From Shigella phage ESh28: a DNA stretch of 64,000 nucleotides. Shown here piece by piece: positions 60,225-61,055 of the stretch. The DNA lies in sequence record ON528738; one strand, given 5' to 3'. Position 1 is the first letter of the stretch. Each line of letters begins with the position of its first letter. The notes beneath the pieces were generated by a model. It was not told the DNA's origin, searched no databases, and saw only the letters and a list, made by a program, of their open reading frames with translations. A program made the position numbers and the translations under genes.

Positions 60225-60297
60225 TGGGAATTAGCCAAGTTGGTAAGGCATAGCACTTTGACTGCTAGATGCAAAGGTTCGAGTCCTTTATTCCCAG
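60225..60297 (+). tRNA. tRNA-Gln (anticodon UUG)
   Basis: cloverleaf folded by eye: acceptor TGGGAAT/ATTCCCA, anticodon loop CTTTGAC, T-arm GGTTCGAGTCC. Confidence 0.85.
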
Positions 60298-60298
60298 C

Positions 60299-60385
60299 GC
60301 GAGAATGGTCAAATTGGTAAAGGCACAGCACTTAAAATGCTGCGGAATGATTTCCTTGTGGGTTCGAGTCCCACTTCTCGCACCA
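60299..60385 (+). tRNA. tRNA-Leu (anticodon UAA), type II with long variable arm
   Basis: acceptor GCGAGAA/TTCTCGC, anticodon loop CTTAAAA, T-arm GGTTCGAGTCC, CCA encoded. Confidence 0.85.
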
Positions 60386-60390
60386 AATTT

Positions 60391-60464
60391 GCGGATATCG
60401 TATAATGGTATTACCTCAGACTTCCAATCTGATGATGTGAGTTCGATTCTCATTATCCGCTCCA
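60391..60464 (+). tRNA. tRNA-Gly (anticodon UCC)
   Basis: acceptor GCGGATA/TATCCGC, anticodon loop CTTCCAA, T-arm GTTCGATTC, CCA encoded. Confidence 0.85.
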
Positions 60465-60474
60465 ATTTAATTTA

Positions 60475-60548
60475 CTCCGTGTAGCTCAGTTTGGTAGAGC
60501 GTCTGCTTTGGGAGCAGAATGTCGCAGGTTCAAATCCTGCCGTGGAGA
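60475..60548 (+). tRNA. tRNA-Pro (anticodon UGG)
   Basis: D-arm GCTCAGTTTGGTAGAGC, anticodon stem-loop TCTGC-TTTGGGA-GCAGA, T-arm GCAGGTTCAAATCCTGC. Confidence 0.8.
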
Positions 60549-60550
60549 CT

Positions 60551-60640
60551 GGAGGCGTGGCAGAGTGGTTTAATGCACCGGTCTTGAAAACCGGCAGTCG
60601 CTCCGGCGACTCATAGGTTCAAATCCTATCGCCTCCGCCA
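60551..60640 (+). tRNA. tRNA-Ser (anticodon UGA), type II
   Basis: acceptor GGAGGCG/CGCCTCC, anticodon loop CTTGAAA, long variable arm, T-arm GGTTCAAATCC, CCA encoded. Confidence 0.85.
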
Positions 60641-60645
60641 GTTTT

Positions 60646-60721
60646 GCTGATTTAGCTCAGTAGGTAGAGCAACTCACTTGTAATGAGAAGGTCGGCGGTT
60701 CGATTCCGTCAATCAGCACCA
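60646..60721 (+). tRNA. tRNA-Thr (anticodon UGU)
   Basis: acceptor GCTGATT/AATCAGC, anticodon loop CTTGTAA, T-arm GGTTCGATTCC, CCA encoded. Confidence 0.85.
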
Positions 60722-60722
60722 A

Positions 60723-60797
60723 GGCCCTGTAGCTGGAAGGTTCAAGCAAGCGACTCATAATCGCCAGATGGTGGTTCAATTCCACCCAGGGCCACCA
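60723..60797 (+). tRNA. tRNA with CAU anticodon (Ile2-type by analogy with T4 tRNA-Ile, or Met)
   Basis: acceptor GGCCCTG/CAGGGCC, anticodon loop CTCATAA, T-arm GGTGGTTCAATTCCACC, CCA encoded. Confidence 0.75.
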
Positions 60798-60809
60798 AAT
60801 TATGAATTA

Positions 60810-60896
60810 GGGGAGTTATCCCGTAGAGGTAGCGGTGTGGACTGTAAATCCATTGTCATTGCGACTCGGGTGGTTCGACTCCATCACTCCCCACCA
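60810..60896 (+). tRNA. tRNA-Tyr (anticodon GUA), type II
   Basis: acceptor GGGGAGT/ACTCCCC, anticodon stem-loop TGGA-CTGTAAA-TCCA, long variable arm, T-arm GGTGGTTCGACTCCATC, CCA encoded. Confidence 0.7.
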
Positions 60897-60900
60897 ATTT

Positions 60901-60975
60901 GGATGTGTAGCTCAATGGCAGAGCGATCGCCTGTTAAGCGATTGGTTATAGGTTCGAATCCTATCACGTCCGCCA
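60901..60975 (+). tRNA. tRNA-Asn (anticodon GUU)
   Basis: acceptor GGATGTG/CACGTCC, D-arm GCTCAATGGCAGAGC, anticodon loop CTGTTAA, T-arm ATAGGTTCGAATCCTAT, CCA encoded. Confidence 0.8.
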
Positions 60976-60979
60976 AATC

Positions 60980-61055
60980 CGAGGCATAGCTCAGAAGGAA
61001 GAGCAAGGACCTTCTAAGTCCTAGGTCGTAGGTTCGATCCCTACTGCCTCGACCA
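60980..61055 (+). tRNA. tRNA-Arg (anticodon UCU)
   Basis: acceptor CGAGGCA/TGCCTCG, D-arm GCTCAGAAGGAAGAGC, anticodon loop CTTCTAA, T-arm GTAGGTTCGATCCCTAC, CCA encoded. Confidence 0.85.

Follow-up and report, generated by a model that had tools for sequence, protein, structure and literature searches.

The ten-gene tRNA cluster of Shigella phage ESh28 is a known segB-free allele of the T-even tRNA region

RESULTS

Ten tRNA genes and two stable RNA genes lie head to tail

A 64,000-nucleotide stretch of the Shigella phage ESh28 genome (record ON528738; referred to as the window) contains a tRNA cluster that an earlier note on this DNA had described as ten contiguous genes, most with an encoded CCA end and with tRNA-Tyr and tRNA-Asn in addition to the eight species of T4. 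ARAGORN called exactly ten tRNA genes in the whole window, all of them on the + strand in an unbroken series spanning 60225 to 61055, and together with Rfam it confirmed the order, the anticodons and the coordinates given in that note (Table 1). Each of the ten exceeded the gathering score of Rfam RF00005, as expected of bacterial-type tRNAs, and ARAGORN agreed in every case; nine genes scored 59 to 74 bits (E values of 1e-11 to 1e-15), while tRNA-Tyr scored 30.2 bits against a cutoff of 29. Both predictors accepted the Tyr and Asn candidates. The CCA end is encoded in 8 of the 10 genes, with Gln and Pro lacking it, and the spacers between the tRNAs measure 0 to 12 nucleotides. Open reading frames (ORFs) within the cluster reach at most 73 amino acids and overlie tRNA genes; none is a GIY-YIG ORF corresponding to segB.

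As shown in Table 1, the cluster lies between homologs of T4 trna.2 and e.8, the same flanks as in T4, and is followed by homologs of the T4 stable RNA genes rnaD and rnaC, which is the arrangement of the T2L/RB1/RB3-type operon. A search of the rnaD/rnaC region (61057 to 61321) returned no Rfam family at its threshold, and both genes were located by alignment with their annotated T4 counterparts. The rnaC homolog ends in a hairpin resembling a tRNA T arm, CCGGGTTCGAATCCCGG, which also matches the SegB cleavage motif (at 61300). Downstream, a terminator-like hairpin that is conserved in fHoEco02 is likely the end of the tRNA and stable RNA transcription unit. Altogether, we consider it highly probable (roughly 85%) that the locus is a Tequatrovirus tRNA operon without segB, in which ten tRNAs, rnaD and rnaC are arranged head to tail ahead of one intrinsic terminator.

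Table 1. Features of the tRNA cluster and its surroundings in the window
Feature	Position	Strand	Evidence and remarks
rnlB (T4 Rnl2)	23962-24966	+	PF09414 and PF18043
57B homolog	57881-58336	+	Acb1, anti-CBASS cyclic-nucleotide phosphodiesterase; PF23474, E value 2.6e-60
trna.2 homolog	59330-59620		phrog_2023
174-amino-acid ORF	59614-60138	+	phrog_2290; function unknown
tRNA-Gln(UUG)	60225-60298	+	ARAGORN; Rfam, 66 bits; no complete encoded CCA; directly abuts tRNA-Leu
tRNA-Leu(UAA)	60299-60385	+	ARAGORN, Rfam; class II; encoded CCA
tRNA-Gly(UCC)	60391-60464	+	ARAGORN, Rfam; encoded CCA
tRNA-Pro(UGG)	60475-60549	+	ARAGORN, Rfam; no encoded CCA; distinct allele
tRNA-Ser(UGA)	60551-60640	+	ARAGORN, Rfam; class II; encoded CCA
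tRNA-Thr(UGU)	60646-60721	+	ARAGORN, Rfam; encoded CCA
tRNA with CAU anticodon, Ile2 type (predicted to be lysidine modified and AUA reading)	60723-60797	+	ARAGORN, Rfam; T2 allele
tRNA-Tyr(GUA)	60810-60896	+	ARAGORN; Rfam, 30.2 bits; class II; weak D stem; T5-type variable arm
tRNA-Asn(GUU)	60901-60975	+	ARAGORN; Rfam, 74 bits; holds the preferred SegB homing/cleavage site
tRNA-Arg(UCU)	60980-61055	+	ARAGORN, Rfam; T2 allele
rnaD homolog (T4 "species 2" small stable RNA)	61057-61176 (approximate)	+	Alignment with annotated T4 rnaD
rnaC homolog (T4 "species 1" small stable RNA)	61183-61321 (approximate)	+	Near-identical alignment with annotated T4 rnaC
Intrinsic-terminator-like hairpin and T run	61372-61405 (hairpin, 61372-61395)	+	10 pairs, 7 of them G-C; conserved in fHoEco02
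187-amino-acid ORF	61490-62053	+	phrog_2280; function unknown
e.8 homolog	62284-62559		phrog_2678

The ten-gene layout is common among T-even phages

The arrangement is not new: it is a common, known allele of the Tequatrovirus (T-even) tRNA operon. In T2L, RB1 and RB3, whose tRNA regions were sequenced in 2008, segB is absent and tRNA-Tyr and tRNA-Asn are present (Brok-Volchanskaya et al. 2008; PMC2330249). The region matched more than 1,000 phage records, the closest full-length matches being T4-like coliphages and Shigella phages of the genus Tequatrovirus. The Tyr-Asn segment was matched by 648 GenBank phage records, 395 of which cover at least 80% of it and are mostly annotated with tRNA-Tyr and tRNA-Asn. 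Among 60 evenly spaced records sampled from 874 matching ones, about 10 carried the ten-gene block as one uninterrupted piece of 828 to 832 bp, and about 8 carried an 11-gene version with tRNA-His inserted before Arg; based on the former fraction, we estimate that roughly 100 to 150 sequenced phages have exactly this layout. The same tRNAs, ten in all and identically ordered, appear in the annotation of fHoEco02 (vB_EcoM-fHoEco02) and on one IMG/VR contig. A survey of IMG/VR via trna.2 yielded six loci, which serve as additional examples; one has the same ten tRNAs, one has the T4-like eight with a gap of about 700 bp before Arg, and one has eleven, including His. The earlier note had treated the eight tRNAs of T4 as canonical and the cluster as noteworthy for exceeding them. 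The count of eight in T4 holds against reference genome NC_000866, as does the status of Tyr and Asn as extra genes; the allele without segB, however, has been in print since 2008 (PMC2330249) and is annotated in hundreds of genomes, and it is T4, invaded by segB, that is in the derived state and is not the canonical form.

The cluster is a mosaic of T4-like and T2-like alleles

The reference T4 genome has the order Gln-Leu-Gly-Pro-Ser-Thr-Ile(CAU)-segB-Arg-rnaD-rnaC in the same position and orientation as in the window. Within the cluster, the two differ in structure at one point only: the place of Tyr and Asn is taken in T4 by segB, a 666-bp gene for a GIY-YIG homing endonuclease. The position of these two genes between the CAU tRNA and Arg, and their order, are shared with T2, fHoEco02 and an IMG/VR locus (L003), and the region as a whole is syntenic with that of T4, T2, T6, RB18, PinkRuby and fHoEco02. 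Gene content varies considerably around this common plan. T4 has 8 tRNAs, with segB in place of Tyr and Asn. T6 has 7, lacking Pro and Ser and carrying segB in place of Asn, directly after Tyr. T2 has 9, with an ORF in place of Thr and another ORF downstream of Arg. RB18 has 10, with segB in place of Pro and with His added, and PinkRuby has 11, with His added and no segB. Compared to T2, the window still has Thr as well as rnaD/rnaC, and its tRNA-Pro is a variant allele. The full set of ten genes, in unchanged order, is found in KIT06 at 99.0% identity and in fHoEco02 at 97.6%.

The identities of the individual tRNAs change along the cluster. Gln is 100% identical to T4 and 99% identical to T2, and Leu and Gly are 100% identical to both. 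Ser is 96% identical to T4 and 100% identical to T2, and its CCA is encoded in the window, where T4 has TAA at that position. Thr, which is absent from T2, is 96% identical to T4. The CAU tRNA, by comparison, is 61% identical to T4 tRNA-Ile and 100% identical to T2, and Arg shows values of 61% and 99%, respectively. The sequence thus switches at the CAU tRNA from T4-like upstream to T2-like, which is consistent with a gene conversion tract of the SegB-homing type. tRNA-Pro(UGG) is a third allele: it is 85% identical to the copies of T4, T2 and also PinkRuby, and fHoEco02 shares the allele of the window. Its anticodon stem is recoded from CCUGA/UCAGG to UCUGC/GCAGA, and the T and acceptor stems are also changed, with full compensation. 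Anticodon-stem nucleases could have selected for such recoding, or the allele may simply have come in from another phage.

Many phage records annotate the CAU tRNA as Met. We rejected this in favor of Ile2, as the gene had full-length matches of 76 to 82% to annotated tRNA-Ile genes (ileX/ileY type) in 5,412 of 5,426 E. coli genomes, at a median of 2 places per genome, and all of the matches listed were tRNA-Ile. Given its resemblance to host ileX/ileY, the gene is predicted to encode an AUA-reading tRNA of the Ile2 type, as in T4.

tRNA-Tyr is a close homolog of phage tRNAs that counteract PtuAB nucleases

Two features of tRNA-Tyr account for its low Rfam score: the long variable arm of a class II tRNA and a mismatched D stem. 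That the call is a false positive or a pseudogene was considered and rejected: ARAGORN folded it into a full class II cloverleaf whose acceptor, anticodon, variable and T arms are intact, the gene is 97 to 100% conserved across several phage genera, and functional homologs exist in T6 and T5. The record of fHoEco02 gives a tRNAscan-SE score of 51.2 for its copy. Identity is 100% to RB18 and PinkRuby, 98 to 99% to T6 and T2, 97% to rV5, 78% to T5 and 60% to E. coli tyrU; for the comparison across genera, positions 60810 to 60896 of the window were aligned with positions 605 to 691 of the rV5 locus (L016) and 300 to 387 of the T5 locus (L015). Copies about 90% identical occur in Enterobacter Karamvirus-like phages, and the rV5-like phages are Vequintavirus. 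Since essentially the same tRNA-Tyr is found in unrelated coliphage groups, the gene has probably spread horizontally among virulent phages.

The two best-studied relatives differ from the window's gene in distinct ways. In T6, tRNA-Tyr occupies the same genomic slot and differs at 2 of 87 positions; T6 has segB after Tyr and no Asn, Pro or Ser, whereas the window has no segB, so that an escape route through SegB-driven tandem amplification would be unavailable in cis. The tRNA-Tyr of T5 is likewise a class II tRNA with a GUA anticodon; it shares the 17-nucleotide variable arm and the T arm with the window's gene, and its 3' half is nearly identical, whereas the D arm and the anticodon stem differ. 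Moreover, T5 tRNA-Tyr has its own strong promoter (P14a), while the window's tRNA-Tyr is the eighth gene of an operon.

The functions of Septu and SegB that enter our explanation are taken from the literature. PtuAB of Septu EcB88 cuts tRNA-Tyr in the variable arm at C48/A49 (Chihara et al. 2026; PMC13096335), and PtuAB of retron-Eco7 likewise cleaves the tRNA-Tyr variable arm; T5 tRNA-Tyr rescues T5-like phages from Eco7 (Azam et al. 2024; PMC11555353). Overexpression of T6 tRNA-Tyr rescues T6 from Septu, and deleting the T6 tRNA region (delta-TRR) increases sensitivity; T2, with Tyr but without segB, is resistant, T6 is intermediate, and T4, which has no tRNA-Tyr, is sensitive (PMC13096335). 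Because Septu also cuts the phage tRNA-Tyr, the effect is one of dosage and not of a resistant anticodon loop (PMC13096335). A screen of 245 tRNAs for suppressors of PtuAB enriched phage tRNA-Tyr genes and no others (PMC12445682). By homology, the window's gene is a candidate member of this PtuAB-counteracting group, with 98% identity to T6 and, toward T5, an identical variable arm. The near identity to the T6 gene makes Septu evasion the best-supported candidate function of tRNA-Tyr, alongside supply.

tRNA-Asn carries the SegB target and a substituted anticodon stem

The window, T2, RB18, PinkRuby and fHoEco02 have the same tRNA-Asn gene (100% identity), which shares 62% identity with E. coli asnT. 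The major cleavage site of SegB and its 27-bp recognition sequence lie wholly within the tRNA-Asn gene of T2L, and in crosses of T4 with T2L, about 1,250 bp of the T2L locus, comprising the CAU tRNA, Tyr, Asn and Arg, is excluded when segB homes into it (PMC2330249). Assuming that T2L equals the sequenced T2 at this gene, the identity between the two tRNA-Asn genes implies that the SegB target is present in the window, with a predicted intact recognition site; RAWTSGAAC, a SegB motif reported in 2026, also occurs in the T loop of tRNA-Asn on the - strand at 60952. As segB is absent from the locus, the phage would be a recipient for SegB homing, and coinfection with a segB-positive relative such as T4 would be expected to convert the locus, erasing the Ile2-Tyr-Asn-Arg segment.

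The anticodon stem of the phage tRNA-Asn reads ATCGC/GCGAT, versus GCGGA/TCCGT in the host, and its G39 breaks the UAAU element. The T5 tRNA-Asn, which is 60% identical overall, has the same change from U39 to G. When the cluster was inspected for substitutions of the type relevant to AriB and OLD, tRNA-Asn had G39 and tRNA-Thr kept U39, for a motif that is short. Any role of tRNA-Asn in this phage would have to be drawn by analogy with such systems.

Tyr and Asn codons are enriched in the phage proteins

Codons were counted in the proteins of the window and in a sample of 26 E. coli genes. Tyr makes up 4.2% of residues versus 2.8% (1.53-fold) and Asn 5.9% versus 4.2% (1.40-fold), ranking first and third in enrichment among the amino acids. 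The codons TAT and AAT are enriched 2.25- and 2.39-fold, comparable to the A-ending codons of the classical eight tRNAs, which range from 1.8- to 5.9-fold (AGA, 5.9; ATA, 3.0; GGA, 2.9; TCA, 2.5; TTA, 2.25; CCA, 2.0; ACA, 1.8; CAA, 1.8). These counts fit the suggestion in the earlier note that the extra tRNAs compensate for codon usage, which is therefore plausible. On the other hand, Lys is enriched 1.41-fold, like Asn, yet the cluster has no tRNA-Lys; thus, supply by itself fails to predict the gene content. Furthermore, since tRNAs with G34 decode the two codons of their box and duplicate the only Tyr and Asn isoacceptors of the host, they add quantity and not new decoding capacity.

The neighborhood contains a counterdefense gene but no RNA repair gene

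The earlier note had pointed to a nearby rnlB repair ligase as fitting an arms race centered on tRNA. The genuine rnlB lies 36 kb upstream of the cluster, and it was dismissed as a neighbor on account of this distance; nor does anything tie it to the tRNA genes. The gene 57B homolog, 2 kb upstream, is labeled "RNA ligase" in the T4 RefSeq record; we rejected this label too, as the Pfam match is to Acb1. Hence, the neighborhood of the cluster holds a counterdefense gene, Acb1, and not an RNA repair gene, and no RNA ligase of a tRNA repair module (Rnl plus Pnk) was found adjacent to or cotranscribed with the cluster.

Two further ORFs were seen at the edges of the region. The phrog_2290 ORF, which forms an insertion between trna.2 and tRNA-Gln, has counterparts in T2 (EcT2_00149) and RB18 (gp272) and is absent from T4, T6 and fHoEco02; it adds one more variable cassette to the border of the tRNA hotspot. 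The phrog_2280 ORF is located between the rnaC terminator and e.8, where T4 has no gene, and its sole match was subthreshold, to a cytochrome b562-like helical protein.

DISCUSSION

The identities of the genes, their homology and synteny and the codon statistics were observed directly; how the cluster works is argued from better-studied relatives. In T4, transcription of the tRNA cluster yields a precursor from which host RNase P and 3' exonucleases release the tRNAs; where the CCA end is not encoded, the host CCA-adding enzyme supplies it. By analogy, the genes of the window would be expressed together in one polycistronic precursor, which RNase P and 3' processing enzymes of the host would cut, and Gln and Pro would receive their CCA from the host enzyme. 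The short spacers and the presence of one terminator downstream agree with this. The classical eight tRNAs read A-ending codons, which the AT-rich phage uses often and E. coli seldom. tRNA-Tyr would replenish the pool when PtuAB of Septu or retron-Eco7 cuts the variable arm of host tRNA-Tyr, acting by dosage, and both Tyr and Asn may in addition serve the raised demand of the phage for these residues. The proposal in the earlier note that extra tRNAs replace host tRNAs cut by nucleases, including those associated with retrons, is thus borne out for the tRNA-Tyr of T-even and T5 phages (PMC13096335, PMC11555353). Its choice of anticodon nucleases does not suit tRNA-Tyr, where the known cut is in the variable arm, and for tRNA-Asn a defense role may be proposed only by analogy.

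Several observations weigh against this account. No promoter could be assigned to the operon: a scan with consensus sequences gave no more hits than in shuffled sequence, and none in the 86-bp leader. The D stem of tRNA-Tyr is weak, and its score barely passes the Rfam threshold. T6 tRNA-Tyr has been reported to be relatively unstable (PMC13096335), retron-Eco7 gave no restriction of T6, and the ranking of T2, T6 and T4 in sensitivity is a correlation across phages that also differ elsewhere. The lack of a tRNA-Lys, noted above, belongs here as well, and a literature search for a function of T-even tRNA-Asn yielded nothing specific.

One alternative is that the two extra genes are purely a matter of translational supply: the AT-rich phage proteome would need about 40 to 50% more Tyr and Asn than the supply to which the host tRNA pool is matched, especially in late structural proteins, and defense evasion would be a laboratory side effect. 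The enrichment ranks of Tyr and Asn and the TAT and AAT counts agree with this, and the classical eight obey the same logic of codon enrichment. However, T4, whose proteome has nearly the same composition, manages without both genes, and T6 manages without Asn; G34 tRNAs bring no new decoding, and Lys, equally enriched, goes unsupplied. In addition, the phenotype that has been measured for a T-even tRNA-Tyr is escape from defense. We regard pure supply as possible but rather unlikely. An explanation in which Tyr and Asn are near-neutral passengers, present or absent according to recent overwriting of a recombination hotspot by SegB or another homing endonuclease, draws on the highly mosaic nature of the slot (T4 without Tyr and Asn, T6 without Pro, Ser and Asn, T2 without Thr, RB18 without Pro, others with His added). 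SegB also cuts inside many of these tRNA genes, in a region described as nonessential for phage development (PMC2330249). Against this stand the conservation of tRNA-Asn (100%) and tRNA-Tyr (98 to 100%) across divergent phages with intact cloverleaves, the retention of the same tRNA-Tyr in unrelated rV5-like and T5-like phages, and the demonstrated fitness effect against Septu (PMC13096335), which together make the passenger explanation improbable.

A further possibility concerns tRNA-Asn and perhaps the variant tRNA-Pro, which might be replacements resistant to Toprim nucleases (AriB of PARIS and OLD of P2) that cut the anticodon stem, as is the case for T5 variants. AriB cuts E. coli tRNA-Asn(GUU), at U36AAUC↓C41, as a secondary target though one of biological relevance, and the T5 tRNA-Asn aids rescue; tRNA-Pro(UGG), whose anticodon stem is fully recoded in the window, is among the probable minor AriB targets (PMC12409363). 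P2 OLD has been assayed on tRNA-Asn(GUU), which it cut more slowly than tRNA-ThrU, and the G39 of the window's tRNA-Asn breaks the UAAU motif as that of T5 does. Nevertheless, T-even phages lack a tRNA-Lys, the primary target of AriB; PARIS restricts T4 and T6, and T5 tRNA-Lys alone rescues T4, with no need for Asn (PMC12409363). The tRNA-Thr of the window keeps U39, and motifs this short are probably missing by chance from any unrelated stem. On balance, we consider nuclease resistance unlikely here.

Tyr, Asn and His, together with Asp, form the queuosine family of tRNAs, which is the substrate set of anticodon nucleases of the colicin E5 type. The content of the accessory slot, all of it GUN tRNAs, is Tyr and Asn in the window, with His added in RB18, PinkRuby and many others. 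It is conceivable, though we think it doubtful, that the slot between Ile2 and Arg is a swappable cassette of G34-U35-N36 tRNAs only, that the whole cassette serves counterdefense, and that tRNA-Asn, with its G39, is a nuclease-resistant substitute. Both Tyr (Septu, Eco7) and Asn (AriB, OLD) are known targets of defense systems. If the cassette were real, homing of SegB into tRNA-Asn would amount to a conflict between a selfish endonuclease and a counterdefense gene.

Returning to the preferred reading of a segB-free T-even tRNA operon, the cluster means little as a discovery: its layout dates from a 2008 publication and appears in the annotation of hundreds of Tequatrovirus genomes, and the function of its tRNA-Tyr was resolved in work of 2024 to 2026. 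As an annotation it has its use, since it identifies the phage as lacking segB here and leads one to expect that it is relatively resistant to Septu-type tRNA-Tyr nucleases, as T2 is and T4 is not.

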